NCBI GenBank assembly: GCA_964487045.1
Contig: CAZAOT010000004.1
Span: 6,605-70,604, forward strand
DNA: 64,000 nucleotides
DNA from: an uncultured Candidatus Saccharibacteria bacterium
GTDB lineage: Bacteria > Patescibacteriota > UBA1384 > DTJR01
Direction: 5' to 3'
Made by a program: the position numbers and the translations under genes. Each line of letters begins with the position of its first letter. The first letter of the stretch is position 1. Positions 8,660-62,926 of the stretch are shown in pieces. Under the pieces are notes generated by a model. That model did not search any database and was not told the origin of the DNA. It worked only from the letters and a program-made list of their open reading frames with translations.

Positions 8660-9927
8660 ATATCGTCGTAACTTCGCATAGCGAGTTGCGCTTTTATAGT
8701 CCTGACAAACTCAAGTGTAACTGAAACGATAATAAGTATTCCCGTCCCTCCAATAGAAAGAGTCTGGATACCGGTTGCTTGCTGTAGAATTATTGGAAAT
8801 AGTGCAACTACAGATAGGAATAATGCGCCAGGAAAGGTAATTTTATAGATAATAGCTGATAAGTAAGTTGCGGTTTGGCTTCCAGGCCTTATCCCAGGAA
8901 TAAATCCGCCTTGCTTTTGAAGATTTTCCGCTATCTGTTTTGGCTGGAAAATTATCGATGTATAAAAGAATGTGAATGCAAACACCAAAACAAAGAATGT
9001 GACTGCATAAAAAATATCATTAGAGAACAATATAGTTATTTTGCTTGCGAAGTTTTTTAATGACTCATTCGTCGCCGTCTGTAACATTTGTGAAATGACA
9101 TTTGGAACTACCAGCAAGCTAGTCGCAAAGATTATTGGAATTACGCCGGCAGCGTTAGCTTTAATCGGAAGATATGAATCAATATTTCCAGTCGACCTGC
9201 CAGCTCGTATTCTTCTGGCATAGCTAATAGGAATTCTTCTCTCTGCCTCGTTTACAAATACTATAAACGCTATCATTGCTAAAAATGCAAGAATTATTTC
9301 TGCGGCGATTAGGTACTGACTTTCGACAATTTGTGCTGTTGCTGCCACCTGAGCTGGAAGTCCTGAGATTATACCTACTGATATGATAAGCGAGAGGCCA
9401 TTTCCAATTCCTTTTTCAGATAATATTTCCCCGAGCCACATCAAGAAAACGCTTCCTGCAGTAGCTGAGACAATCACCAGTGCTAGATCAGCAGTTGTAA
9501 GTGCTGATAAAACATTTTGAGACTGAAGTACTCTTACAAGTCCGTATGCTTCGACAACTGCCAGAGGAACAGATAGGTATCTAGTATATTGATTAATTTT
9601 TTCTTTTCCGTACTCCCCTTCTTTTTGCAATGCTTCAAGTGAAGGGATCGCCATTGTTAGAAGTTGGAATACAATCGAGGAAGTAATATAAGGACCAACG
9701 CCGAGCATCACAAGGGAAAACCTGCTAATTGAGCCGCCAGAAAACAAATCAAGCATTCCGAGAACTTGGTTATTTTCAAAGAAATTTTGCAGTCCTAGAG
9801 TATCGACGCCAGGCAACGGTATATGAGACAATACGCGATACAGCAGTACAATTAGTGCAGTGAAAATTAATTTGTTCCTTATATCTTTAAGGGTAAATAT
9901 CCTTTTGATAGTGGAAAAATTGATCAT
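8656..9927 (-). CDS. secY: Preprotein translocase subunit SecY
   Basis: 10-TM SecY; the N-terminus contains KDIRNKLIFT. Confidence 0.9.
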   Translation of the reverse strand: MINFSTIKRIFTLKDIRNKLIFTALIVLLYRVLSHIPLPGVDTLGLQNFFENNQVLGMLDLFSGGSISRFSLVMLGVGPYITSSIVFQLLTMAIPSLEALQKEGEYGKEKINQYTRYLSVPLAVVEAYGLVRVLQSQNVLSALTTADLALVIVSATAGSVFLMWLGEILSEKGIGNGLSLIISVGIISGLPAQVAATAQIVESQYLIAAEIILAFLAMIAFIVFVNEAERRIPISYARRIRAGRSTGNIDSYLPIKANAAGVIPIIFATSLLVVPNVISQMLQTATNESLKNFASKITILFSNDIFYAVTFFVLVFAFTFFYTSIIFQPKQIAENLQKQGGFIPGIRPGSQTATYLSAIIYKITFPGALFLSVVALFPIILQQATGIQTLSIGGTGILIIVSVTLEFVRTIKAQLAMRSYDDI

Positions 9928-10316
9928 TTTTGATTTTGATGAGCTCTTCTAACTGAGTCATCAAAGACAATCTTTACTTTCAATTCCTTTTCAGAATATA
10001 TTTTAATTGGTTTGTCGGTATCGGTAATTTTTAGTCTTTTAATGATTTCCTCGCTAGATGCTGTTTCTCCATCTTTAAAGACATTATTTAGTCTATCAGC
10101 ATTTATCGAAGTATATTTTTTCTCTTCAGCTTTAAATCCCTTGGCTTTTGGTAATCTCATGAAGAAGCTAGTCTGGCCACCAGTTTTGAAGATCGTTGAC
10201 GCACCAGTTCTAGATTTTTGACCGTTCATGCCTCTACCTGAAGTTTTGCCCTTTCCACTTGATGGACCACGGCCTAGTCTTTTACCTTTATTTACGACTT
10301 GTTCTAATTTAATCAT
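9924..10316 (-). CDS. rplO: 50S ribosomal protein L15
   Basis: KGKRLGRGPSSGKGKTSGRG. The start overlaps the rpsE stop, with no L30 gene between them. Confidence 0.9.
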   Translation of the reverse strand: MIKLEQVVNKGKRLGRGPSSGKGKTSGRGMNGQKSRTGASTIFKTGGQTSFFMRLPKAKGFKAEEKKYTSINADRLNNVFKDGETASSEEIIKRLKITDTDKPIKIYSEKELKVKIVFDDSVRRAHQNQK

Positions 10317-10762
10317 TATACACCTTCAGATGATCTTCTTAATCCTTCAATAGTGGCTCTAGCAATATTAATTTTATTGTTTGATCCATAGCTTTTTGAG
10401 ACTAAATTTCTCACACCAGCTAATTCGCAAACGCTTCTAACAACTCCACCGGCAATAATTGAAGTACCCTCAGGAGCCTTTTTCAGTAAAATTTTAGCTG
10501 AATTTAAATTAATATTAATTTCTTTATTGATCGAACCAGCTTCATTAAGCTTAATCTTAGTGAATTTTTTCTTGGCCTGATCTCCAGCTTTTCTGATAGC
10601 AATAGATACATCATTAGCCTTACCTAGACCCATTCCAACTTTTCCGTTTTTATCACCAACAATTATTAGAGCTCGAAAAGAGATTCTCTTTCCACCCTTA
10701 ACAGTTCTGCTTACTCTGCTAACTTCGATGACCTTCTCTTCAAAAAGCTTTTCTTCTGACAT
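10316..10762 (-). CDS. rpsE: 30S ribosomal protein S5
   Basis: S5 dsRBD plus C-terminal domain. Confidence 0.9.
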   Translation of the reverse strand: MSEEKLFEEKVIEVSRVSRTVKGGKRISFRALIIVGDKNGKVGMGLGKANDVSIAIRKAGDQAKKKFTKIKLNEAGSINKEININLNSAKILLKKAPEGTSIIAGGVVRSVCELAGVRNLVSKSYGSNNKINIARATIEGLRRSSEGV

Positions 10763-11587: not shown

Positions 11588-11956
11588 TTAAAATACCTCG
11601 CAGATTAGTTCGCCACCAAGGCCAGCCTTTTTAGCTTTAGAGCCACTCAAGACTCCCTTAGGCGTAGAGACAATAACCATTCCATAACCTCTTGGTTTAG
11701 GTATATTTTTGCTTTTAACATAAACTCTTCGACCTGGACGGCTAACTCTTCGAATTTTTTCGAAATCTTTTCCAGATTCTTCAAGATTTATGACAATTTC
11801 TTTTTCCTGCGCAGTAAAGGATCCTACATAACCCTCTTCTTTAAGCACGCTAAGTATACCCATCTTAATTTTTGAGAAGGGTACTATCAAGCTTTTTCTG
11901 CCCGCTTTTTGAGCGTTGGAAATTCTTGTAACTAAATCTGCAATTGTGTCATTCAT
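11588..11956 (-). CDS. rpsH: 30S ribosomal protein S8
   Basis: N-terminus MNDTIADLVTRISNAQKAG. Confidence 0.9.
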   Translation of the reverse strand: MNDTIADLVTRISNAQKAGRKSLIVPFSKIKMGILSVLKEEGYVGSFTAQEKEIVINLEESGKDFEKIRRVSRPGRRVYVKSKNIPKPRGYGMVIVSTPKGVLSGSKAKKAGLGGELICEVF

Positions 11957-11964
11957 TTTATTTA

Positions 11965-12077
11965 GCCCGTTAGAGATTGAAAGCTACTGCTTTCGACTCT
12001 TCTAGGTGGGCGTTGTTACTTTTACTCATTTTTTAACTGATTCACTTGATTCTCTAGGTTCGTTATCTCTAACGGGC
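11965..12077. repeat. Palindromic repeat element, copy A. Its 13-nt terminal inverted repeats GCCCGTTAGAGAT ... ATCTCTAACGGGC enclose an 87-nt interior
   Basis: The perfect 13-nt inverted repeat was read directly. It fills the 122-nt rpsN-rpsH spacer. The same inverted repeat recurs at 34081-34160 and 60628-60704. Confidence 0.7.
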
Positions 12078-12078
12078 C

Positions 12079-12264
12079 TTACCAAGATGATTTTATTACA
12101 CCAGGGATTTCTCCCTTGCTGGCTAATTCTCTGAAACAAATTCGGCAAATACCAAATTTTCTCATAAAGCCGCGATTTCGACCACATTTTCCACAACGTC
12201 TAATTTTTCTAGATGAAAATTTTGGTGTGCGCTTTGCTTTTTCTATTAATGCAAGTCTTGCCAT
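12079..12264 (-). CDS. rpsN: 30S ribosomal protein S14, Z-type (zinc-binding)
   Basis: 61 aa with C-x2-C...C-x2-C, and ...[11 protein letters not shown]. Confidence 0.85.
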
Positions 12265-18009: not shown

Positions 18010-18133
18010 AAGTAAACCTTCTCCCAAAAACTCTCCAGTCACACTGGGGGATTATTCGGGATGTAGCAATTAATAAGTTAGCTACGTTCCCTCGCAACTC
18101 AGTTCGAGATGCGAGGATGACTTAACTACCTTA

Positions 18134-34068: not shown

Positions 34069-34160
34069 TAACGGGCCTTGACCCGTTAGAGATATACTTT
34101 ACAAAACCTCGAGGCCCATTTATTGTTTTTAGAGCTGCTAGCGCAGATCTCTAACGGGCC
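34069..34160. repeat. Palindromic repeat element, copy B: an extra half-site TAACGGGCCTTG, then ACCCGTTAGAGAT, a 53-nt interior, and ATCTCTAACGGGCC
   Basis: The same inverted repeat as copies A and C was read directly. It lies 27-118 nt upstream of the uvrA start, in the divergent intergenic region. Confidence 0.65.
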
Positions 34161-34306
34161 TTGGAGGATTATACTAAAAAATAAAACGAAAATCAACACC
34201 TCAATAATCCTAAAATATTTTCTTGATTTTAATAATCGATGTGTTACATTTTGAACATATTTAGTTGGCTTAAATTTCAAATGAAGTAAGCAAGAAAGGA
34301 AGTGGT

Positions 34307-41570: not shown

Positions 41571-42932
41571 CTACAAGGCATTTATTACTGCCAATATTCC
41601 AAGGACTATGAAAAATATAACTGCGAGCAGTAAGATGATTGATCTTAAACTAGATGCCGTAAACTCTTTTGCTATCATTTTTTTGTTTAAAATATATGTA
41701 AGCGAGATATGTATAACCATCGCGAAGGCATTAATTACCGCACCGGTAACCACTAATGCAACCGGATCAGTATAGCCCGATAAGAAGACAATAATCGACG
41801 CTATAATCTGAATCCATAAAACCAGATAATATGTTTTTGATAAATCTAGATTTTTTTTAAGAATGACAATATTCTCAGAAATTATTCTCGATGTTGAATC
41901 AAGTATTGTCAATTGTGTACCAAATAGCATAATCGCTACAAGTATCAGAAATAATGCGCCAAAATATCCTGACACAATATTTCCAATTGACTTAGCTTCA
42001 AAAATCAAAAAGTCAATTCCTTGAAGCGACGAATTTCCATTTGTCGCCGCATAAGACAAAAGAGCAAGAAGCAAAATCGTAATCGCTCCAGTAAACAGAA
42101 ATACTATAAAATGCTCGAGATTAATCAGCCTCCACCATAAAACAAATCTTCTTTTATTTTCATTCAAATTGAAATCGGCTTTATTGCCATAGACTGACTC
42201 AGGTTTTGCCCCCTTTAATAACACCGAACTAATTCCAACCGAACCCTTACACATTCCATAACCCTTCTCTTTAATATAGAAAGATTGAGCTAGGTTTAGA
42301 TTTCCACCAGCTCCCGAGTAAGCTAGCGCCCCTAAAAATACAAACAAAGGAATACCTTCAGGCAAAAAACTATATCCATCCCCTATCCCGACAATTCCCC
42401 TGCCAAGAGCTTGCCAGTCTGAAAACTTAGCAACCAATGCAACCAAAATTACAATCACTGGAACACCAATCAAAATTACATATTTCTGAAAAGTCTCCAC
42501 TGTTTTGTACAATCTTGGCCCGAGAGTTAAGATTAGCCCAATCAAAACAAGCAATATTATTGCGAGCAAATCAAATCTCTCATAGCCAAAGCTAACCGAA
42601 AAAATCTTGGCACTCGTTGCTATAATTCCAGGCCACATCCATGCTATAAAAGTTGATAGAATAAACCAAATTGGTAGTTTTTTTGATAATCTCGAAAAGC
42701 CAGCGAAAATACTCTCCCCCGCTAATAGAGAATATCGCTCGATTTCTAAATTTACGAAAAATTGAATAGTTATACCTATTATTGCAGCCCAAATTATTCC
42801 AAGGCCATACCTTGAGACCAAATAAGGCCACAAGATTAATTCACCTGAGCCAAGACCTAATCCAAGTAGAATAATACTCGGACCAATTGCATCCCTAAGT
42901 CGTGGTACTGCCGGCAATATTTTGTTTTCCAT
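41571..42932 (-). CDS. Polytopic membrane transporter, Nramp/MntH-like (tentative)
   Basis: About 11 TM helices. The N-terminal segment GPSIILLGLGLGSGELILWP...GIIWAAIIGITIQFFVNLEIERYSLLAGES parallels the Nramp first-helix and second-helix signature. Confidence 0.4.
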   Translation of the reverse strand: MENKILPAVPRLRDAIGPSIILLGLGLGSGELILWPYLVSRYGLGIIWAAIIGITIQFFVNLEIERYSLLAGESIFAGFSRLSKKLPIWFILSTFIAWMWPGIIATSAKIFSVSFGYERFDLLAIILLVLIGLILTLGPRLYKTVETFQKYVILIGVPVIVILVALVAKFSDWQALGRGIVGIGDGYSFLPEGIPLFVFLGALAYSGAGGNLNLAQSFYIKEKGYGMCKGSVGISSVLLKGAKPESVYGNKADFNLNENKRRFVLWWRLINLEHFIVFLFTGAITILLLALLSYAATNGNSSLQGIDFLIFEAKSIGNIVSGYFGALFLILVAIMLFGTQLTILDSTSRIISENIVILKKNLDLSKTYYLVLWIQIIASIIVFLSGYTDPVALVVTGAVINAFAMVIHISLTYILNKKMIAKEFTASSLRSIILLLAVIFFIVLGILAVINAL

Positions 42933-45488: not shown

Positions 45489-45628
45489 TTATATACAAAT
45501 GTTATCATTTTTTTGAATAGATCAACACTAAGTTAGTATTGATCTATTTATAGTTTTCTAGTAGAATAGGGCCAGCTTGGTTGTTCATTGACCCCCATCA
45601 ATACATCTTCAAGGAGTGATGCTTTTTC

Positions 45629-45814
45629 ATGACTGAACCGAAGGAGTCTTGGGCCGCAGACCTTAAACAGCGGCTACAACGTCTCAGATATGAGGCGGAA
45701 ATCAACATGCTTAAGCGGCAGAACGAGCGGCTCATGTGGGTCATCCGAATGCTGCTAGGCAATACTGGCAAGCAAAAGGAGAAAGACCACAATGACCGCA
45801 ATCCGCAAGAGTGA
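45629..45814 (+). CDS. Hypothetical small coiled-coil protein (GC-rich islet)
   Basis: ORF with AAGGAG 12 nt upstream. Local GC is above 50%. Confidence 0.3.
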   Translation: MTEPKESWAADLKQRLQRLRYEAEINMLKRQNERLMWVIRMLLGNTGKQKEKDHNDRNPQE

Positions 45815-45995
45815 AGTAACAAAAGAGCAGTATTTGTTCCTCTTCCCCGACGAGTTAAACGAGGACGAGGGTGGACCGGAAACGATCAATGGACAACGTG
45901 TCCTGTCGCTCGATTCCGATCTTGGGCCTTGGCCAGATCCCGAATGGGATGTGGATATCTACAGGATGGCCTGCAATGAGCTGAAAAGGCGGTAG
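45792..45995 (+). CDS. Hypothetical small acidic protein (GC-rich islet), overlapping the upstream ORF by 23 nt
   Basis: ORF in the same GC-rich islet. It is followed by the terminator hairpin GGGCCCA...TGGGCCC plus a T-run at 46150-46192. Confidence 0.3.
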   Translation: MTAIRKSEVTKEQYLFLFPDELNEDEGGPETINGQRVLSLDSDLGPWPDPEWDVDIYRMACNELKRR

Positions 45996-46149
45996 TCCTC
46001 TAACTACCAACAACGCGGCAAGGGTTATCCTGCCGCAAGCGGTCAATGGCAAACAAGCAAAGCGGCTACGCTATCGTGCATCAAAGGTGTCGTAAACAAG
46101 ACGCAAAGGAAAGGCGGACCAACGTGTCCTCTAACAGCGTAACCTAACA

Positions 46150-46192
46150 GGGCCCAGCATCCACATGGATATTGGGCCCTCAAAGTTTTATT
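46150..46192 (+). terminator. Rho-independent terminator (GGGCCCA-N16-TGGGCCC, then TCAAAGTTTTATT)
   Basis: 7-bp GC stem plus T-rich tail, read directly. Confidence 0.5.
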
Positions 46193-46409
46193 ACATCTTG
46201 AAAAATTCGAGAATTTTATAAACAAGTATCGCTGGCCAAATAATCGCCTTTAACACCCCTAAGACTCCCATCCAGAAGGTCTCAGCATGCTGTAAGAAGT
46301 AAATCACAGCACCGATAAAAGCTAGACCATATATACCTCCCCCGAATGCCCCACCACCTGATCCTTTGGGATTTTCACAGCATTTTTCACCTTCCATATC
46401 TTTTGCCAT
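46191..46409 (-). CDS. Small Gly/Cys-rich membrane protein (hypothetical)
   Basis: AAGGAG ribosome-binding site; the N-terminus contains CCENPKGSGGGAFGGG, followed by two TM helices. Confidence 0.4.
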   Translation of the reverse strand: MAKDMEGEKCCENPKGSGGGAFGGGIYGLAFIGAVIYFLQHAETFWMGVLGVLKAIIWPAILVYKILEFFKM

Positions 46410-46477
46410 ATGACTCCTTAGTTTAGTTTTCTAAAATATAACAAATTATAATATTAAATTCTTGATATAATCATCGC

Positions 46478-48381: not shown

Positions 48382-51300
48382 TTAGCTACTGGCTTCACTC
48401 CTAAGCCTCATTCTTAGCCCGCCCGCCGAGTGATTTCCACTAATTCGTCCCCCACCTCTAAACTCTACATAATGATCTCCGCCGGGAGAAGGTACGACAT
48501 TAACAGTGGCCTCTACCGGCTCAATAATATATGCTGACTGCTCACTACCAAACCTTTTCGTCAGGATGTCACGACTAAGCCCAGCCGTCGAAAGAGCACT
48601 GTCAGTGATAAATATGGATACTTTAGCTTTTGGCGCTTTAGCCTTAATAGCTGCGAGCTTTTTGGTGACAGCGGCTAAATGCCCATAGAGAATATCGGGC
48701 GAGTGGTTCCCGTAAATCTGGTCAAACACAAAGGACATTTCTTGCTGCTCGCCAATTGTAATCGGCTCAAAGAATACTATCTCGTCGGAAATACTACCTT
48801 CGTTAGCATCCTTGTTAGCATCTTGGCTGTATAAGTAGAATTTGTTCGGATCACCAAAAGTCAGATTTGTATCATTATTGCAACCCGTAGTGTTACACGC
48901 CAAACACTGTCTCATATTCTCGATAATAGGAATCCAGCTATTTGTAATATTGCTGTTTATAGTTAGAGCTGAATCACTTCCTCTTAAATTCCTTAACACC
49001 TCTTGCGTCGCGGTTTGATATTGAGTTGCGCCCTGTTTTTGTGACTCATCGAGCATAGTCTTGAGTTTGTTTTCAATTTCCAATATCGCTTTTTCAAGCA
49101 CAGTCATCTGCTCCCTAATCTCCTGGAGATAAGCAGCTATTGCATCTTTATCCTCTTTTTCGGTGATCTTCTCCTGATTCTTCGAAGCAATACTCTCTAG
49201 ATAGATTAAGTCCTGAGAAATTGCTCGTGCTCCCGAGTCGGTTTTAAACTCCTCGCCTATATCATTAAAGATCCTTACTATGTTAGCGTTTGGTACAAGC
49301 TTCGCACGTAAAGCGTCTACCAGTTTTCGATACTCCGTTCGCTTCTCGACCAAATTCATTGAAGTTGTCGCCAGCTTCACCGTTGATTGTATTGACTTAA
49401 GCTTTTCAATAACCGGCATATCCGAATTCAACTTATCAACTGCCAAGAATTCTTCAACGATATTAAGTTCTTCTTCGGATATCGGTAAATCCTTCCCCAT
49501 TTCAATCTGTATCTTTTTTGCCAAAGCGCTGTTGACCTTACTCGAGCTATAATGCTCGACTAGCGATACATAAGGACGCATTTCTTCTGGATAAGTATCG
49601 GGATCAGCATAAACCTCTAATGCCAATAAAATTCCTTCTAGTTTATCATCCACTGTACGAATATTCCCAAGATGCTGAACTATTACCTCTTCTTGTAATA
49701 TGGGCTGAATTTCAGCGAGCTCCTGGTCGGACAAACCGATTACTTCAGTTGGAATAAATGCTGCCTTATCTCTTTCTTTCAAGTACTCTTTGATATATTT
49801 GTAATGCTGGTTATCCGCTGAAAAATATTCCACCAACTCCTTTTCTAAGTCATCCCCCCTAAACATTTTCCCTTGTCTAAACTGATCCCACTTACCATTT
49901 ACAGTCAGGGCCAAAAAGAGCATTAATAAAGCTGTTTTCTCTTCGTCCTTCGATTTTATATTGCCTAAATAGATCAAGATATCCTTTAACGCTCGAATAT
50001 CCTTGACCTCCATTTTCTCAGGCAACTTATCAAATCCAAGCCTGTCTTTGAAACTTACTTGAAGCCTAGAGAGGGTTTCTTTTTTAAATTCTTCGATTAC
50101 CCCTACCCGATCATTACCCAGCTCAAGCTTATCTGAAAAATCCTTCAGAAGATTCCTAATTGGGAGCAAATCCCGCACACTATATTCCTTGGCTTCTTCC
50201 GGCAAGTGCGTACCAAGAGCGCCGACTTCTGGATTTTTAGGTGGTTGTTTTTGTTCAAGAACAACAAGCTGTGCCTGAAAAAGAGGATAGATATTCTCGA
50301 CGAAATCTTCTAATTCTTTTGGATTAAGCTGTTTAAAAATACGATCGAAATCCTTATACAAAGCAGGCGATGCACCTAATATTTCCTTGGTTACACCATA
50401 AAAATATGATCTGTCTTCATTTCCCCAGCGATTTTTATCAAAGTAAGCTTCTTGGTCCATGAGCATCTGCCCCAGCTGGCGCTTGGTCTCAAAAGCTGTA
50501 TGTCCTTTTAAAAACGCACTATCCATTCCTTCGATCAAACCGGCCATTGCTTGTATATGCCTTAAGTGCCCCGCACCTTCGTTTTTTTGAATGAGTCTAG
50601 CTAGCAAGACCGCATCGACGTTTGATTTAGATTCGGTGAGCTTTTGGATATGATCAAGATAAGCCTTTCGATAATTTTCAAAGACGAAGCTCATTACTTC
50701 AGGATCCTTAAAATAATCTTCGATCCACTGAACTTGCGTTCCCCCCATACTTCTAACAAACCCAGAGAGATAAATAACCCAGTTATCTTTAGTAATAGGT
50801 TGTGTTTGTTCAGGATTATTCTTGGCAAAGTCATATTCAGGAATTCTTGAGCTTTCAAGTAAGGCTGTGTTTTCCTCGCTTAGTCTGCCGGCATAATGCT
50901 CAGCTACTACAAACTTCAAGCCGACATCACTTGCTTGCATATTTTCAAGAATAATTTTACAAAGCCGTTCAATGCTTTCCTGAGGATGCTTTTCGCGGTT
51001 TCTAATGATGTCTGAAACAATGTCTCTAAGCCCCCATATTGATGATTCTTCTGGTATCGCTCCATGCATTTTTGCCAGAGAATCTAGAGCTAACTCGATA
51101 TCAACCTCGTCAACGTTAGAGCCGCTCTTATTATCTAGTAAAATCATTTTCATAACCAAGTCATCACTCTGCTCTAGCAATGATTGCATCGCTGTTGCTT
51201 GATCTAAAAATATCGCGTCAAGCCTCTTTTGGGTCTTAGCGTTGCCCATCCGAATAGCAGATTTGAATATGTTATTGAGTATTAACGCGACAAATCTTTT

Positions 51301-53835
51301 TTGCTGACTAGTCCCGTCTCTGAGCAAATTTAAATGCTGGTCTATGACTTTTTTGCGCTGATTTATTTGTTCCTCATCTTCAAGATTTTTAATTAGCGTC
51401 CATCTGCCAATTTCAGACGAAATTGCGTCAGCAATCGCCTTAAAGCTCTTTGGATCTTTTGCACCTTCGTAGTATTTGGTCAAATACTCGATCGCCTCTG
51501 GTTTACCGTGGACCGAAGCGCGGGCAAGCGACTGGGCAAACTCATTATCCATCGCCTCAGCAATTGGCTTTTTTTCATCAAGCGTCTTTAAAAACTTTCC
51601 ATAAACCTCACTTGGTCCAGCCATACTTAAAAGCATCAATATATTGTTTCTGTCTTGATCTTTTAGGCTCTCAATAAAATTGAGGTTTTCCATGGACCTC
51701 TCGACGATACCTGGTAAAAAATCTAAAGAGCCCGGCTCAATAGAATCTGAAGTCAATCTCATTTTCATATGATTGATATAATCAATATGTTCAGATTCGG
51801 GAGCCGCATCAAATATTCGCGCTGCATATCGGCAATTATCCTTAGTCAGATATCTCTGCAAATAATCTTTAGCAATAACTGGTTCCTGGAGTGCCATTTC
51901 TATTATGTCGCCTTGGCCATCACTAACTTCGTTAGCTGTGTAAGCCAAATGTGCATATAATGAAATTTTTTCTCTCCTGGAAGCTCCACTAAGCAATCGC
52001 TCAGCAACCCTAGCAAAATTTTTTCCTTGTATGCGACGAAACGATTCGTCATATATTCTTCTGGCCCCTAAAGGACTTCTGCTATTTTGAATCAGCCGGC
52101 GCAGGCCTGTATTTTCTTCACGAGCCAAAAAGGCCTTTAACTCTTCCTGATCCAATCCTGCAACGTAACTATTATATGCATTAGGAACATCGCTACGCGA
52201 TGAGTACATCAGTGGCCGCTCACCCGATCCCCCGGGTTGAGTATAGGCAAAAAATGTCAGTATTGGTAATGCCTCAACATTCTTAAATTTAGTTAGCTGC
52301 AACTCTAATTCTGCAGCATCATGGCGCATCTCACTTCCCTTATCAAAAATCATCTCTAACCTTGCGTCGATGATCATTTTTTCGACCTGGTCTAGCCTTT
52401 CCTTGGTAAATCTATCGATCACCTCCGGATCACTCCTAAAAGCATTCCAGAGATCAGGGTCCAACATAAACGGCGCCAGTGCATTCTTTTTTGCGCCTTC
52501 TAATTCGGTTTTTTTATTTCTGATCAGAGACTCTGTGCTATACCACCCAGAGCTATAATCAGTGGTGGTCACAAACCGATCGGCAATTTCAATCTGTCGA
52601 TTGATGAGCTGAATCATCTCAAAACGCACATCTCCCTGGAGAATCTTGGCAACAGGAGTGACATCGATTTCCTGAGGAATTCGTTCGATCTGAGAGCTTA
52701 AATAGCTTACGTCAAAATATTGGCAAACCTTTTCTATCTTGATGCCTAAATCACGAACTAGTTCCTCTTCTTTCTCTGGCTGAGCTGCTTTGGCAATAAG
52801 AAATTCAGAAATATCTTTAGTCAACCCCTCAACCATTAAGAAACCAGAGGGAATATGGTAGGAGTCTATTATTTGCTTCAGCTTTTCACTTATGAGGCTT
52901 AATTCTATTCGTTTTTTAGCTTCCTGGCTAATCGCTAAATCTTGGTTTTCGACTGTTTGGTCGAGATCGGGATAAGTAACATTTTCGATTCTTTCTCCAA
53001 TGTTGTGATTGATTATGGCAATTAGTTTTTCTTTAGAATATTCCAAGTCATAATAGCCTCCTACAGGATAAATCACTGCCTGCTTTAGATCCAGTAGTTC
53101 AAAATAGTCCTTTTGGATCGCCGCCCGCTGTACATCATTGGCTAAAAGACGGCGGCGAGCCTCCTTAATATCTTCATCTTCGCGGCCAAAAGCTTTTCTA
53201 ATCTTTCGGATTGGATGCATGTGATAATGTCGGTAAATCAGGTCACGATCGGCCCAGGTTTGATCGGTTAATTTATCAAGCCTGCTTCGCATATCTTCGA
53301 CTGATTCGGCGCCATGCTCAGCCAATAGTTTTTGAGTCGAGGTTGCTACAGCACTCTCGACATATTTTATAAACGAATTTATCTTTTGAGCATCTTCTAG
53401 CCTGATTCTCTCAAGATTTTCAATTTCGCTGATAAGCTCAACCGCTTCCTCCACCCGGACCCCTGCTTGAGCATCATCTTCCTTGAAAGCCTCCATTTTT
53501 TCATTGAGCGCTTTGTAGAGCTTTTCGGTCATATCCTTAATATCGCCAACATGCCCCTTCATCTGAACAATAAATGCCTTAATATCCGGCACCTCAACAA
53601 CTCTACCTGGTGGCTCAGACGCTGTCGGTTCCGTTACATCAGTCGCTCTACTCTTTATCTGTTCAGCTCTAGACTTTTTGACTGAGCGAGCCGCGGCGGT
53701 AGCTTCTAAAATTGCTTCCAAACTATTCAGTTCAGACTCAGTTTGGACAAAAATATCACTCTTGGCTCCAGACTCAGCAACTGGCTCACCAACTTCTTGC
53801 TCCTCACTACCAATAATTTCCGGCTGATCCGGCAT
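48382..53835 (-). CDS. Giant 1817-aa soluble hypothetical protein (ORFan)
   Basis: One uninterrupted ORF with an AAGGAG ribosome-binding site. No signal peptide, TM helix or recognisable catalytic motif. It appears predominantly alpha-helical and acidic, with a Cys cluster (CLACNTTGC) near the C-terminus. Confidence 0.6.
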   Translation of the reverse strand: MPDQPEIIGSEEQEVGEPVAESGAKSDIFVQTESELNSLEAILEATAAARSVKKSRAEQIKSRATDVTEPTASEPPGRVVEVPDIKAFIVQMKGHVGDIKDMTEKLYKALNEKMEAFKEDDAQAGVRVEEAVELISEIENLERIRLEDAQKINSFIKYVESAVATSTQKLLAEHGAESVEDMRSRLDKLTDQTWADRDLIYRHYHMHPIRKIRKAFGREDEDIKEARRRLLANDVQRAAIQKDYFELLDLKQAVIYPVGGYYDLEYSKEKLIAIINHNIGERIENVTYPDLDQTVENQDLAISQEAKKRIELSLISEKLKQIIDSYHIPSGFLMVEGLTKDISEFLIAKAAQPEKEEELVRDLGIKIEKVCQYFDVSYLSSQIERIPQEIDVTPVAKILQGDVRFEMIQLINRQIEIADRFVTTTDYSSGWYSTESLIRNKKTELEGAKKNALAPFMLDPDLWNAFRSDPEVIDRFTKERLDQVEKMIIDARLEMIFDKGSEMRHDAAELELQLTKFKNVEALPILTFFAYTQPGGSGERPLMYSSRSDVPNAYNSYVAGLDQEELKAFLAREENTGLRRLIQNSRSPLGARRIYDESFRRIQGKNFARVAERLLSGASRREKISLYAHLAYTANEVSDGQGDIIEMALQEPVIAKDYLQRYLTKDNCRYAARIFDAAPESEHIDYINHMKMRLTSDSIEPGSLDFLPGIVERSMENLNFIESLKDQDRNNILMLLSMAGPSEVYGKFLKTLDEKKPIAEAMDNEFAQSLARASVHGKPEAIEYLTKYYEGAKDPKSFKAIADAISSEIGRWTLIKNLEDEEQINQRKKVIDQHLNLLRDGTSQQKRFVALILNNIFKSAIRMGNAKTQKRLDAIFLDQATAMQSLLEQSDDLVMKMILLDNKSGSNVDEVDIELALDSLAKMHGAIPEESSIWGLRDIVSDIIRNREKHPQESIERLCKIILENMQASDVGLKFVVAEHYAGRLSEENTALLESSRIPEYDFAKNNPEQTQPITKDNWVIYLSGFVRSMGGTQVQWIEDYFKDPEVMSFVFENYRKAYLDHIQKLTESKSNVDAVLLARLIQKNEGAGHLRHIQAMAGLIEGMDSAFLKGHTAFETKRQLGQMLMDQEAYFDKNRWGNEDRSYFYGVTKEILGASPALYKDFDRIFKQLNPKELEDFVENIYPLFQAQLVVLEQKQPPKNPEVGALGTHLPEEAKEYSVRDLLPIRNLLKDFSDKLELGNDRVGVIEEFKKETLSRLQVSFKDRLGFDKLPEKMEVKDIRALKDILIYLGNIKSKDEEKTALLMLFLALTVNGKWDQFRQGKMFRGDDLEKELVEYFSADNQHYKYIKEYLKERDKAAFIPTEVIGLSDQELAEIQPILQEEVIVQHLGNIRTVDDKLEGILLALEVYADPDTYPEEMRPYVSLVEHYSSSKVNSALAKKIQIEMGKDLPISEEELNIVEEFLAVDKLNSDMPVIEKLKSIQSTVKLATTSMNLVEKRTEYRKLVDALRAKLVPNANIVRIFNDIGEEFKTDSGARAISQDLIYLESIASKNQEKITEKEDKDAIAAYLQEIREQMTVLEKAILEIENKLKTMLDESQKQGATQYQTATQEVLRNLRGSDSALTINSNITNSWIPIIENMRQCLACNTTGCNNDTNLTFGDPNKFYLYSQDANKDANEGSISDEIVFFEPITIGEQQEMSFVFDQIYGNHSPDILYGHLAAVTKKLAAIKAKAPKAKVSIFITDSALSTAGLSRDILTKRFGSEQSAYIIEPVEATVNVVPSPGGDHYVEFRGGGRISGNHSAGGLRMRLRSEASS

Positions 53836-54159: not shown

Positions 54160-55083
54160 ATGGACCAAGTTTCACAATCTGCGCCAAGCGAGCAAGCATC
54201 ACTGCAGGCGCCTAAAAAATCGAATACTTGCCTTGTCGTTGCGATAATTTTATTTATTATTTTTATAGTCCTTGCTGCTGGAGGATATTTGATTTACAAA
54301 AAAGGCTCAGGCGTATTGAAAAGTGCTGTTAGCTCAATAACGCTTAATCCGAACTGTAAACAAAATGATCCAGATTTGTGCAAATTCCTAAACAACTGGC
54401 AATCGATTGATTATTTTACCGCCAATTCAACTTCAACGTTTGAAGGTAAAGAGCAAAAATCAGTTATGAAGTCTGTCGGAGATGATAAATTTCAAATGAC
54501 TAATATTACTGGTGGAAGTGAAAATTACAATATGATTTCTATCGGCAACACTACTTATACAAAAGACTATACAGATGGCAAATGGCTCAAAACTACTCTT
54601 GAGCCAACCAAATCAGATGCAAGTGCGACTGAAATAAAAGACGAATTTGATTTTAACGTCGAAGAAGATCAAACGACTTACAAAAAAATAGGCAAGGAAG
54701 CTTGCGGCAAATTGACATGTTTTAAATATCAGGTTATAGATCCACAAATGGCCGAATTAAACAGCAAGGAGTATATACTTTTTGACGACAAGGATTATCT
54801 GCTACGAAAAACCATTACCGAAGGACCGGACAATAATTTAGCGACCAGCGAATTCGACTACTCAAAAATTACAATCATCGAGCCCTCACCGATCAAGGAA
54901 GGCCCCACTAATATCCAGATCCAAAGCACTACCTCTGGCTCATCGAGCACAAATACCACCTCAAACTCAAGCTCTGATTCCGAGCAAACGATGGAAGAAA
55001 TTCAGCAGGAACTAGAAAATATTAGCACTGAATTACAAAACGCCGATCAACCAGCTATTCCCGCCGAACCTGTTGTCGAGTAA
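54160..55083 (+). CDS. Membrane-anchored extracytoplasmic hypothetical protein
   Basis: N-terminal TM helix (CLVVAIILFIIFIVLAAGGYLIY), then a Ser/Thr/Asn-rich ectodomain. Confidence 0.5.
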   Translation: MDQVSQSAPSEQASLQAPKKSNTCLVVAIILFIIFIVLAAGGYLIYKKGSGVLKSAVSSITLNPNCKQNDPDLCKFLNNWQSIDYFTANSTSTFEGKEQKSVMKSVGDDKFQMTNITGGSENYNMISIGNTTYTKDYTDGKWLKTTLEPTKSDASATEIKDEFDFNVEEDQTTYKKIGKEACGKLTCFKYQVIDPQMAELNSKEYILFDDKDYLLRKTITEGPDNNLATSEFDYSKITIIEPSPIKEGPTNIQIQSTTSGSSSTNTTSNSSSDSEQTMEEIQQELENISTELQNADQPAIPAEPVVE

Positions 55084-59179: not shown

Positions 59180-59428
59180 ATGGATCAAACAGCACTTAAT
59201 GAACCAATCAGTGTCTTAGCCAGCTTCAAGGAAGGCCGGCCCACTCCTCTTATTTTTAAACGTAATGGTCGCAAAACCAGGCTAGAAACAATCGACCTCA
59301 AATACGATTATCAAATTGGCGAGACTAGAGTTTATGCTTTCTCTGCCTCCGCCGGCGGAAACACTTATAAAATTACATTCAACAATAAATCTTTGCAGTG
59401 GATACTGGAAGAAATTGCCTGTGGATAA
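59180..59428 (+). CDS. Small 82-aa protein translationally coupled to the Y-family polymerase (possible polymerase accessory factor)
   Basis: Its stop (TAA at 59426) overlaps the GTG start of the polymerase (tGTGgaTAA). It sits behind its own strong promoter. Confidence 0.45.
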   Translation: MDQTALNEPISVLASFKEGRPTPLIFKRNGRKTRLETIDLKYDYQIGETRVYAFSASAGGNTYKITFNNKSLQWILEEIACG

Positions 59429-60671
59429 TAAAAGAATTATTCTCCATATCGATATGAACTCCTATTTTGCTTCTGTCGAGCAGCAAGCTAGGCCAGTGCT
59501 TAGGGGTAAGCCAATTGGCATTGTCGGCTCGCTAGACAAAAAAAGAACGATCATCGTCGCTGCTTCTTATGAAGCCAAAGCGCTTGGCATCAAAACCGGC
59601 ACTCAACTCTGGGAGGCCAAAAGGCTCTGTCCTCAAATCGAATTAATTTCCGCTGACTGCCAGCGCTATGAAGCAATTACTCGCCAATTTTTAAATATTT
59701 TTATTTCTAAAACTCCCCTCGTTGAGATCTTCTCTATCGACGAAGCCTTTCTTGACGTGACCACTCAAACAAAAAATTTTGAGCAAGCCGAGAAGCTGGC
59801 GCTGCAAATCAAACAAGAAATTAAAGAAACGATTGGGGCAAGTATCCGTTGTTCAATCGGCATCGGCAGCAATAAATTTATTGCCAAACTAGCATCCGAA
59901 GCTAAAAAGCCAGATGGTCTAACGATTGTGCCGCCAGGACAAGAACAAGATTTTGTTGATCAATTTGAGCTTAAAGATGCTTGTGGCATTGGCTTTCGGA
60001 CTGACGCTCATCTTAAAAAGCTTGGGATTAATTCTTTTAGAGATTTACGCGCAAGACCACTAACTGACCTTACCCTTATCTTTCATTCGTACGGACTAAA
60101 ACTCTACCGCATGGCGCGCGGAGAGGATTTTGACAAAATTAAGCCCTACTATGAGCGCGAATTACCTAAAAGTTTTTCCAGAAGCAAAACCCTAAGGCGA
60201 GACGTATTTGATAAAAATGAAATTAAAAATTTTATCATGGCTTTTGCCGCTAATATCGCCGAAGAGCTCAAAAACAAATCACTCTTAGCCACAAACGTTG
60301 GACTCTACCTGCGTTTTAACGATTTTAGAGGATATTCGGCCACGATAAATCTTAAAAAATCTACGAATTTCAGTTTAGACTTCTTTAAGGCCTGCAGTAA
60401 AATGCTTGATAGCATTGAACTTAACAAGCCAGTTAGAAAAGTAGGTATCTGGATCGGCAAACTGCAAAATGATCATGGACAGGAACTTATTTTTAAAGAA
60501 TTATCAAAGCCCGTCAAGCTCGAAAAAATTAGCGAAAAGATCAACCAGAAGCATGGCGACAACCTGGTCTTTAGGGCCAGGCTTGCCGGATTAAATTTCT
60601 TTGGTAAAACACCAAATTACGGATTTACCCCGTTAGAGATTTTTGAAGATATAAAAAAATCTAAGGAGTAG
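59421..60671 (+). CDS. Y-family translesion DNA polymerase (DinB/UmuC-like)
   Basis: (V/M)DNKRIILHIDMNSYFASVEQQ matches the DinB/UmuC N-terminus. Also has SIDEAFLD and GIGSNKFIAKLASEAKKPDG. The start is set at the GTG at 59421; the ORF-finder's ATG at 59316 adds non-homologous residues. Confidence 0.85.
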   Translation: MDNKRIILHIDMNSYFASVEQQARPVLRGKPIGIVGSLDKKRTIIVAASYEAKALGIKTGTQLWEAKRLCPQIELISADCQRYEAITRQFLNIFISKTPLVEIFSIDEAFLDVTTQTKNFEQAEKLALQIKQEIKETIGASIRCSIGIGSNKFIAKLASEAKKPDGLTIVPPGQEQDFVDQFELKDACGIGFRTDAHLKKLGINSFRDLRARPLTDLTLIFHSYGLKLYRMARGEDFDKIKPYYERELPKSFSRSKTLRRDVFDKNEIKNFIMAFAANIAEELKNKSLLATNVGLYLRFNDFRGYSATINLKKSTNFSLDFFKACSKMLDSIELNKPVRKVGIWIGKLQNDHGQELIFKELSKPVKLEKISEKINQKHGDNLVFRARLAGLNFFGKTPNYGFTPLEIFEDIKKSKE

Positions 60672-60704
60672 TATTTAATTGATATTACCGGATCTCTAAC
60701 GGGG
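60628..60704. repeat. Palindromic repeat element, copy C. CCCCGTTAGAGAT and ATCTCTAACGGGG flank a 51-nt interior that spans the polymerase stop codon
   Basis: Read directly. The left inverted repeat encodes TPLEIF within the last 14 codons of the polymerase. Confidence 0.65.
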
Positions 60705-60774: not shown

Positions 60775-61620
60775 CTAGGCATCGCGAAGCGCGCTACTGA
60801 CAAACTCAAGCGCTTCAGTCGCATCTTTGATAACTGCATCGAAGCGCTCTTGGGTTGAGAGGGGAAGAAACTTCAGCATGCCTATTTCCGGCGAGTGTTC
60901 CAAAACAACGGGCACCTCCGGATACCAGAAACCGATACAGGCAAGCTGCTCCTTGAGAGGCATGGTACCTCGCCCAGGAACCAGATGGCCTTGCCAGCGT
61001 TTTCCCGGCACGCTATCGCATATGTGAAACTCGGCGATAGGAGCCAGGTTCTCGACATGGTCACAGAACTCCTCCAGAGAGTATCCGCCGGAAGGATGAT
61101 ACTGCGCTAGGTGTTCAACGTCGACAACTATCCCTACGTCATCAACGACAGAGCAAACGCAGCGTAGCGCCCGAGAAAAGCTCTCAAGCAGGTCGCCTTT
61201 GATAAGCGGGTGCGAGAAGAAGTTAGAGTTCTCAACCAGCACACTAAGGTCCTTAAGCTTGCTGATCTCCTCCGACAGCATCAACTCAAGGATGTTCTCG
61301 TGATGCAGAATGATCGGTATCTGGTACTCACGGGCAATTTCGATTCCCGGAGTTCCAAAGAGTGGACCGATCATCAGCTGCCAGAGAATAGCAAACTTGA
61401 CCTCACTTCTAGGTCCGAAACGAAGCCTATTGTACAGACTCCGCCTTGTAACCAGTGGCGATCCATGAAAAGCGACTACTCCGCTATCAATGTCGCTCTC
61501 ATCAAAGGCTCGAAATGGCGTAAGCTCGACGCCATACAGGCCCATCAGTTCTCGTGCAACGCGATGAGCTACATCCTTGTCTCCCCAGCATGCTACATCA
61601 GAAATAGCGATGGCATTCAC
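60775..61620 (-). CDS. Metal-dependent TIM-barrel protein, xylose-isomerase-like / AP-endonuclease-2 superfamily (tentative). About 52% GC
   Basis: Regularly spaced His/Asp/Glu clusters (ILHHENILE, VVDVEH, FHICDS, VLEHSPE) fit this fold. The specific subfamily is unresolved. Confidence 0.3.
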   Translation of the reverse strand: MNAIAISDVACWGDKDVAHRVARELMGLYGVELTPFRAFDESDIDSGVVAFHGSPLVTRRSLYNRLRFGPRSEVKFAILWQLMIGPLFGTPGIEIAREYQIPIILHHENILELMLSEEISKLKDLSVLVENSNFFSHPLIKGDLLESFSRALRCVCSVVDDVGIVVDVEHLAQYHPSGGYSLEEFCDHVENLAPIAEFHICDSVPGKRWQGHLVPGRGTMPLKEQLACIGFWYPEVPVVLEHSPEIGMLKFLPLSTQERFDAVIKDATEALEFVSSALRDA

Positions 61621-62728: not shown

Positions 62729-62926
62729 ATGGCAGATGAAGATATGGACGTAGAAGAAAAAGACGAGGAAGTTGAAGAAGAAAAAGAAGGTGAAGAAGAA
62801 GAAGTAGAAGAAGAGGAAGTTGAAGAGGAAGAAGAAGTCGCTGGTGACGAAGACGAGTCCGACGACAACGAAGAAGACGAAGAAGAGGATGAAGAATCCG
62901 ACGACGAGGAAGAAGAAAAAGAATAA
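62729..62926 (+). CDS. 65-aa extremely acidic poly-Glu/Asp protein (candidate DNA-mimic or chaperone-like disordered protein)
   Basis: Strong ribosome-binding site (GAGGAGGTG, 8 nt upstream), a TATAAT box upstream, and a dedicated terminator downstream. 49 of 65 residues (about 75%) are Asp or Glu. Confidence 0.5.
   Translation: MADEDMDVEEKDEEVEEEKEGEEEEVEEEEVEEEEEVAGDEDESDDNEEDEEEDEESDDEEEEKE

Follow-up and report, generated by a model that had tools for sequence, protein, structure and literature searches.

We have studied the junction between the ribosomal protein genes rpsN and rpsH in a 64,000-nucleotide stretch of DNA, the whole of which is referred to below as the window. The fusA-tuf-S10/spc/alpha cluster lies on the minus strand of the window, and NCBIfam models identify L5 and L6 as the neighbors of rpsN and rpsH. 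Both genes at the junction are intact, and they are separated by 122 nt, the length that had been given in a preliminary description of the locus. As that description also stated, 113 nt of the spacer form a palindromic element, which we call copy A, and about 9 nt of native spacer remain, divided as 1 nt on the rpsN side and 8 nt on the rpsH side. The features of the junction are as follows, with sequences given in the mRNA sense.

12079-12264, minus strand: rpsN, type Z S14, 61 amino acids, intact (NCBIfam 102 bits against a cut-off of 77)
11957-12078, minus strand: rpsN-rpsH spacer, 122 nt, from the open reading frame (ORF) coordinates and gap table
12078-12081, minus strand: left flanking tetranucleotide TAAG, which includes the rpsN stop TAA; register taken from the TNNA rule of the family (see below)
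11965-12077, minus strand: element copy A, 113 nt end to end, in the sense orientation to rpsH, with its hairpin on the rpsH side
12065-12077, minus strand: 5′ inverted end, GCCCGTTAGAGAT, starting 2 nt after the rpsN stop
11979-11994, minus strand: subterminal hairpin GAAAGC-AGUA-GCUUUC, 1 nt from the 3′ end
11965-11977, minus strand: 3′ inverted end, ATCTCTAACGGGC, finishing 8 nt before the rpsH ATG
11961-11964, minus strand: right flanking tetranucleotide TAAA, an imperfect direct repeat of TAAG
11588-11956, minus strand: rpsH, S8, 122 amino acids, intact, beginning ATGAAT (NCBIfam 127 bits against a cut-off of 119)

Reading along the mRNA, the rpsN TAA is followed by a single G, the element, the 8 nt TAAATAAA and the rpsH ATG. 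The two ends of copy A form a perfect inverted pair of 13 bp (GCCCGTTAGAGAT and ATCTCTAACGGGC) enclosing an interior of 87 nt, so that the long-range stem finishes 8 nt upstream of the rpsH ATG, as originally reported, and the GGG of the 3′ end lies 9 nt upstream of that ATG. The flanking tetranucleotides TAAG and TAAA match at three positions out of four, i.e., the direct repeat is imperfect. Structure prediction for the 122-nt spacer RNA, which the preliminary description had proposed, gave a folding free energy of −34.3 kcal/mol (z = −3.4), and the 13-bp long-range stem is present in both the minimum free energy and the centroid structures. No promoter-like or terminator-like site was found within copy A, and the element should therefore be transcribed within the spc mRNA. 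The identical 122-nt spacer is present in independent assemblies from two projects; four Logan contigs contain the complete element, and a fifth begins inside it. Evidently copy A is not an artefact of assembly.

The preliminary description had regarded the operon as otherwise free of gaps, with every other junction overlapping or shorter than 45 nt. This proved to be incorrect. The map-infA and fusA-tuf junctions measure 48 and 62 nt, and the rpsJ-rplC gap is 91 nt to the GTG start of the ORF, or 124 nt to an ATG that matches the length of L3 in the relatives; a conserved, structured rpsJ-rplC spacer of about 100-250 nt is present in all of the relatives. In the window this spacer occupies 18010-18133 on the minus strand, and it is 104-254 nt long in every relative examined. 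It contains conserved sequence blocks (for example TCCCGAATAAT), and has a predicted two-domain fold with six compensatory pairs across five sequences. There was no match to it in Rfam, and it may be an undescribed ribosomal protein leader. We also note that rpmD, encoding L30, is absent between rpsE and rplO (9924-10762), with the same gene order in the relatives. Absence of rpmD is usual in bacteria of the Candidate Phyla Radiation (CPR).

Copy A is not alone in the window. The 12-mer CCCGTTAGAGAT occurs six times, as three inward-facing pairs, compared with an expectation of 0.00 pairs and 0.21 single matches from 100 dinucleotide-preserving shuffles. The other two pairs define the following copies.

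34082-34158: copy B, 77 nt, 12-bp ends, with uvrA (minus strand) on one side and a bactofilin gene (plus strand) on the other
60628-60704: copy C, 77 nt, 13-bp ends, with a stem that can be extended to 18 bp

The three copies have identical ends, with no detectable similarity between their interiors. Copy B is flanked by CTTG on both sides. An 11-nt duplicate of its right end and flank (AACGGGCCTTG) lies to its left within 34070-34163, and seems to be what is left of a second copy, either tandem or partly deleted. The flanks of copy C (TTTA and TGAA) form no direct repeat. The dinB (DNA polymerase IV) ORF at 59316-60671 takes its final 13-14 codons (..TPLEIFEDIKKSKE) and its TAG stop from copy C, and thus the native C terminus or stop codon of dinB has been replaced by the element. 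An ORF of 281 amino acids (60775-61620) converges on copy C; it has no Pfam match, and this is also true of the window ORFs at 48382-53835 (1817 amino acids), 41571-42932 (453 amino acids) and 54160-55083 (307 amino acids). Elsewhere in the window there is a long run of GAA/GAC/GAG-rich repeats at 62735-62923, probably encoding an acidic low-complexity tail, and about 1 kb at 45489-46477 in which every ORF is shorter than 90 codons and nothing matches Rfam.

Was copy A inserted into a preexisting junction? To address this we used the operons of five relatives (L012, L015, L138, L139 and L140), which were reached via their S8 homologs. A search of genome contigs with S8 returned relatives that were only 38-45% identical, and the nearest named relatives of the window S8 are Berkelbacteria, at 59% identity. 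SecY identity arranges the six genomes as three pairs: the window and L012 (89%), L015 and L138 (95%), and L139 and L140 (86%). The rpsN-rpsH junction in four of the relatives is as follows.

L012, the sister of the window genome: TGGTAA-TATT-ATGAAT, 4-nt spacer
L139: TGGTAA-ATAT-ATGAAC, 4-nt spacer
L138: 17-nt spacer
L140: spacer of about 22 nt

The junction carries no element in L011-L014, L138, L139 and L140. These empty sites indicate that the 113 nt are specific to the species of the window. The alignment of this junction, also proposed in the preliminary description, therefore bears out its claim that the element was inserted between rpsN and rpsH: the spacer is 4 nt in the sister and 4-22 nt in the other relatives.

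The further suggestion that such insertions are rare in ribosomal protein operons does not hold for this clade, since among the operons of the five relatives that of L139 contains an intact copy and that of L015 has element-like spacers. In L139 a copy with exact arms lies between rplR and rpsE with flanks TTAA and TTAA, reading TTTTAA-C[CCCG...CGGG]G-TTAAGGAAATATT-ATG; the window is empty there, and its equivalent sequence is TTTTAAGAGGAAATATT-ATG. In L015 the spacers at rpsN-rpsH and rplR-rpsE are long and element-like (108 and 112 nt), with degenerate ends and an internal motif in common, and the sister L138 is short at both junctions. At the rpsN-rpsH spacer of L015 a match to the family is left only at an AACGGGG end, 7 nt before the ATG, and the fold has been lost (z = +1.6). 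Pieces resembling element ends are also seen in the short spacers of L140 (11193-11221; CTACGCTAGAGGA) and L138 (9984-10000; AGGTAAAATAT), and from their sequence these may be deletion footprints of earlier copies at rplR-rpsE and rpsN-rpsH. The conclusion that emerges is that copies or relics of the element recur within the same ribosomal operon of this clade.

Having found the element in the window and in its relatives, we can ask how widely it is distributed. Metagenome contigs from JGI/ENA were scanned for exact 12-nt arms spaced 45-105 nt apart, giving at least 120 contigs. The metagenome contigs listed, together with the window and its relatives, provide at least 133 non-redundant copies of 60-276 nt. 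Among the copies listed the hosts range from 30% to 62% in GC content, and for the matches listed the source names of the adjoining proteins (Candidatus Nomurabacteria, Vogelbacteria and "Parcubacteria group") indicate that they are mostly Parcubacteria.

The bases at positions −1 and +1 outside the 12-mers are complementary in 127 of the 133 copies listed, so that the inverted end is 13 bp, N-CCCGTTAGAGAT. The ends are flanked by a 4-bp repeat of the form TNNA, perfect in 74 of the 133 copies listed compared with 11.5 expected from shuffled pairings; the most common repeats are TGAA (37 of the 133 listed) and TGGA (12). The register of the repeat is fixed by what we term the C..G-type copies, where the left flank is ATGAAC and the right flank GTGAAA, the ATG of the host having been changed to GTG. 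In five loci (L035, L083, L102, L106 and L130) the inverted end finishes in G with conversion of ATG to GTG, and long ORFs follow the new GTG. A 6-bp target duplication (RTNNAY) was considered and rejected. It is perfect in only 27 of the 133 copies listed, and is also contradicted by recent copies with ATGAAT on the left and ATGAAG or ATGAAA on the right, and by the ATGAAC and GTGAAA of the C..G-type copies.

The hairpin of the family is perfectly Watson-Crick paired, typically TAC-GGAA...TTCC-T, and lies 1 nt from one end. Among the copies listed there are 45 distinct stems in 59 hairpins, with 458 Watson-Crick, five G-T and seven A-C pairs in a total of 470. A structure specific to RNA was rejected on this basis, as G-U pairs show no excess over A-C (five versus seven). 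By its base pairing, the hairpin of the family is a perfect DNA palindrome that lacks the wobble asymmetry of a structured RNA.

By contrast with the identical ends, the interiors are AT-rich but otherwise unconstrained, being 36-100 nt and up to about 250 nt in length. The interior resembles that of no other copy in 80 of the 133 copies listed, although the search demanded exact ends and their identity is biased to that extent. Identical ends with unrelated interiors would be unexpected for old neutral decay, and hint at selection or homogenization of the ends. Nevertheless some interiors are nearly identical at different genes (L086, L100 and L109; also L060, L063, L082 and L131), and tandem copies share one flanking repeat. 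Taken together, these observations indicate recent transposition. Head-to-tail pairs with a shared flank are found in L020 (2307-2492), L080 (1835-2141) and L065 (1-160); the tandem junctions take the form arm-GTTTAC-arm or arm-ATGAAT-arm, with each insertion regenerating its own target. Two copies of about 275 nt (L094, 23-295, and L121, 6259-6534) have their hairpin halves AGGAAGCGCC ... GGCGCTTCCGTA some 190 nt apart, and judging from this spacing may have arisen by insertion into the hairpin loop.

We searched for an enzyme that might move the element. Among 704 ORFs in the 740 kb that flank the copies listed, we found no transposase or recombinase with the family ends, and clustering these ORFs revealed housekeeping families only. 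The same was true of the approximately 38 ORFs of the window, among which Pfam and NCBIfam identified no transposase or recombinase. IMG/VR viral contigs contained neither a copy of the family nor an autonomous relative. Rfam gave no match in the window at the gathering threshold, and none at E ≤ 1 in 15 element loci; nor was a promoter motif found in the element interior at a fixed distance from the hairpin. The element is nevertheless built like a MITE (miniature inverted-repeat transposable element). It is smaller than about 400 bp and has no transposase ORF, the only ORFs being spurious overlaps, and it has terminal inverted repeats, a target duplication in the family, multiple copies, and presence or absence between relatives. 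A search of the literature, including full text by arm sequence, found no description of the element family. CPR bacteria thus contain a widespread and apparently undescribed family of MITE-like elements.

What is most unusual about the family is its precise placement at start codons and stop/start junctions, which had been overlooked in the first reading of the sequence. Of the 128 copies listed, 66 adjoin the start codon of an ORF that is 80 codons or longer, such that the last base of the inverted end is the A of the ATG, or the G of the GTG in C..G-type copies. The distribution of distances between element and start in the copies listed has a sharp spike at zero, with a small cluster at 6-9 nt that includes copy A. 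Thus copy A is a typical member of the family, apart from its position 8 nt upstream of the ATG instead of on it. Public gene calls agree on the start codons that adjoin the copies, and the N termini of valyl-tRNA synthetases are consistent with the canonical start. The genes concerned are housekeeping genes, such as valS, leuS, topA, murD, mviN and lepA, whereas the ATGAA at the left-hand side of the element opens an ORF of only 6-43 codons that stops inside it.

Upstream of the element there are different situations. In 24 of the 66 start-codon copies listed, an ORF on the same strand ends no more than 26 nt before the element, and seven of these 24 end 1-2 nt before it, as rpsN does. In another 21 of the 66 there is no upstream ORF; a −10-like box lies 4-11 nt before the left ATG, and Shine-Dalgarno sequences are almost absent. 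In 24 of 61 cases (L018-L137) the −10-like box (TATAAT with no more than one mismatch, and in several instances an extended TG) has its peak 5-10 nt upstream of the left ATG. These sequences suggest that many genes in the Parcubacteria hosts are leaderless; our literature search found no paper mentioning both leaderless and Parcubacteria.

Duplication of TGAA at an ATGA(A) junction keeps both the upstream stop and the downstream start intact, and selection in very compact genomes can explain part of the placement at start codons. AT-only tetramers are rare among the flanks, although they would be expected to be common in AT-rich intergenic DNA, so that an enzyme with a target preference is probably involved too. 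The orientation is also biased, with the hairpin on the gene side in 45 of 56 start-codon copies listed and on the other side in 11. Such a bias is not predicted by pure selfish insertion.

Could the element then be something other than a mobile element? The orientation bias (45 versus 11) would be accounted for by an RNA module selected by the host, in which a 13-14 bp stem of the ends on the adjacent hairpin is cut or gates ribosomes, setting the level of S8 or separating the spc transcript, for example via RNase III. Such a module would also agree with the constancy of the ends among very different hosts, set against freely variable interiors, with the possible stacking of the long-range stem and adjacent hairpin to about 20 bp, and with the presence of an RNase III gene close to the operon in relatives. 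However, the element is absent at rpsN-rpsH in the sister genome and three other relatives, and the same ends are found at unrelated sites, namely upstream of uvrA and where dinB has its 3′ end. Moreover, the hairpin stems are perfect DNA palindromes (G-U five versus A-C seven of 470 pairs), there is no Rfam family match, and the rpsN-rpsH spacer of L015 no longer folds (z = +1.6). We consider a dedicated regulatory RNA to be unlikely, while the biased orientation and strictly conserved ends would still allow the host to have adopted the element secondarily. Much less probable again is an inverton, in which the paired ends would be recombination sites that flip the AT-rich interior upstream of genes. 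Conserved inverted repeats do surround a variable AT-rich segment directly upstream of genes, and the element points in opposite directions at two valS genes that are only distantly related (42% identical). But the whole unit including its ends is missing from relatives with precision, and 4-bp direct repeats flank it; no recombinase gene recurs beside the copies listed, the interior has no promoter motif at a fixed position, and within an operon, where copy A lies, a switch would have no obvious purpose.

A REP/BIME/REPIN or IS200/IS605-type element, which a Y1 (HUH) transposase would mobilize in single-stranded form, has marginally less to commend it than the inverton. It is the shape of the hairpin rather than its sequence that is conserved, the orientation bias could reflect the replication strand, and no DDE transposase was found. 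Against this, the element has long terminal inverted repeats and target duplications, which are absent from those families, its ends contain no GTAG-type REP head, and no RAYT, TnpA-like or Y1 transposase ORF recurs among the genes flanking the copies listed. Chance inverted repeats and assembly artefacts can be set aside altogether, since none of the 100 shuffles yielded a single arm pair compared with three in the window, and the spacer is identical in independent assemblies from two projects. Integron attC sites were rejected as well. These have R″ (RYYYAAC) on the 5′ side and R′ (GTTRRRY) on the 3′ side, and occur in cassette arrays, whereas in the element the order of the cores is reversed (GTTAGAG ... 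CTCTAAC) and the copies are solitary at housekeeping genes. Readings of the ends as attC-like or Xer/dif-like sites were dropped because each end has only a half-site, with the cores in reversed order.

The best explanation of copy A is that it is a non-autonomous, MITE-type mobile element, which very probably inserted at the stop of rpsN and start of rpsH after the split from the sister lineage. The sequence evidence for this comprises the anatomy of the element, its multiple copies, the empty sites in the relatives, the nearly identical copies elsewhere, and the placement at start codons and junctions.

A number of known systems resemble the family in part. The Correia elements (CREE) of Neisseria likewise belong to the MITEs; they measure about 100-150 bp, have terminal inverted repeats as well as short target duplications, and are located near genes and co-transcribed with them. 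From the work of De Gregorio et al., the ends of Correia elements reportedly pair in the mRNA to become a substrate for RNase III in Neisseria. Correia elements differ in having 26-bp ends, a TA duplication and a conserved interior, in being confined to Neisseria, and in lacking the placement at start codons. The ERIC (or IRU) sequences of enterobacteria, imperfect palindromes about 127 bp long, lie in intergenic regions that are transcribed, sites inside operons among them, and differ in sequence, hosts, TA flanks and conserved interior. The consensus sequences of Correia, ERIC and other named MITE families are not known to resemble the family with its ends CCCGTTAGAGAT and flanks TNNA. Correia elements have been listed as MITEs with noted effects on mRNA stability, and ERIC elements can alter the fate of mRNA through RNase E (PMC3184786).

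The REP2 repeats of Neisseria and the upstream repeats of Borrelia carry a promoter, ribosome-binding site and ATG as a package, whereas our family contributes only the first base of the start codon and lacks any conserved promoter or ribosome-binding site. Rickettsia palindromic elements (RPE) are likewise mobile palindromes that reduced genomes tolerate in or at their essential genes, and in our family copy C encodes the C-terminal 13-14 residues of DinB. RPE insert in frame inside coding regions and are translated, in contrast to the family, which sits at gene boundaries. The DDE transposons of the piggyBac/IS1380 type provide a further comparison, as piggyBac has the end CCCTAGAAAGATA and a 4-bp TTAA target duplication. 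The possible likeness lies in ends starting CCC..TAGA..GAT and a 4-bp T..A target duplication, but the target of the family is TNNA, mostly TGAA, and no transposase was found. Lastly, in the T4 gene 60 gap and the mitochondrial byp elements a structured insert lies between identical codons, and skipping restores the original message. Our element is likewise inserted between ATGAA ... ATGAA, but copies were not found inside ORFs, the upstream ATG opens a short ORF only, and there is no evidence of ribosomal bypassing.

How might such an insertion be tolerated within an essential operon? The native spacer of 4-5 nt implies that rpsH is translationally coupled to rpsN. Copy A would be co-transcribed with the operon, and pairing of its ends in the mRNA would loop out the 87-nt interior, so bringing the rpsN stop and rpsH start close together in space. 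On reaching the rpsN UAA, which lies 2 nt short of the stem, a terminating ribosome would open the 5′ arm and release the 3′ arm. The GGG of the 3′ arm would then stand 9 nt from the rpsH AUG, a distance suited to a Shine-Dalgarno sequence. In this way S8 could still be translated by coupling despite the insertion, and if copies are tolerated through such looped-out pairing they would be expected to accumulate at stop/start junctions. In genomes lacking the element the UGG of the conserved Trp-stop is found at about the same position as the GGG of copy A, and the AACGGGG remnant of L015 would fit with adoption of the G-run as a ribosome-binding site. An effect of copy A on translational coupling or RNA processing, as envisaged in the preliminary description, is thus plausible from the sequence, and cleavage of the stem, for example by RNase III, is possible; an RNase III gene is located near the operon in relatives.

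A more ambitious and rather doubtful reading is that the family is a mobile element adapted to start sites. Its target would be the TGAA of ATGAA, both where the start is leaderless and where stop and start overlap in the ATGA manner; it would rebuild the start codon with its last base and loop itself out of the mRNA by pairing of its ends. Ribosomes would then reinitiate or shunt, or an RNase III-type cut would leave a nearly leaderless mRNA. Reinitiation by scanning through an interior depleted of ATG was dropped, because interiors such as that of L024 were seen by eye to hold several ATGs. If adaptation to start sites is correct, bacteria would have in the element a counterpart to bypass and shunt elements, and an insert of about 115 nt without a ribosome-binding site would be tolerated before valS, topA, murD, mviN and rpsH.

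The element marks sites that need care in gene calling and operon prediction in CPR bacteria, and its presence or absence provides a marker at the strain level. It also raises the question of translation across a stem-loop of 75-125 nt that separates a gene from its transcription start or from an upstream stop. The genomes of CPR bacteria are very small and densely packed, and mobile elements are considered to be scarce in them. Here a family with identical 13-bp ends spans the Parcubacteria (Nomurabacteria and Vogelbacteria) and the Berkelbacteria-like lineage of the window, and has repeatedly entered the most conserved operon of the cell.
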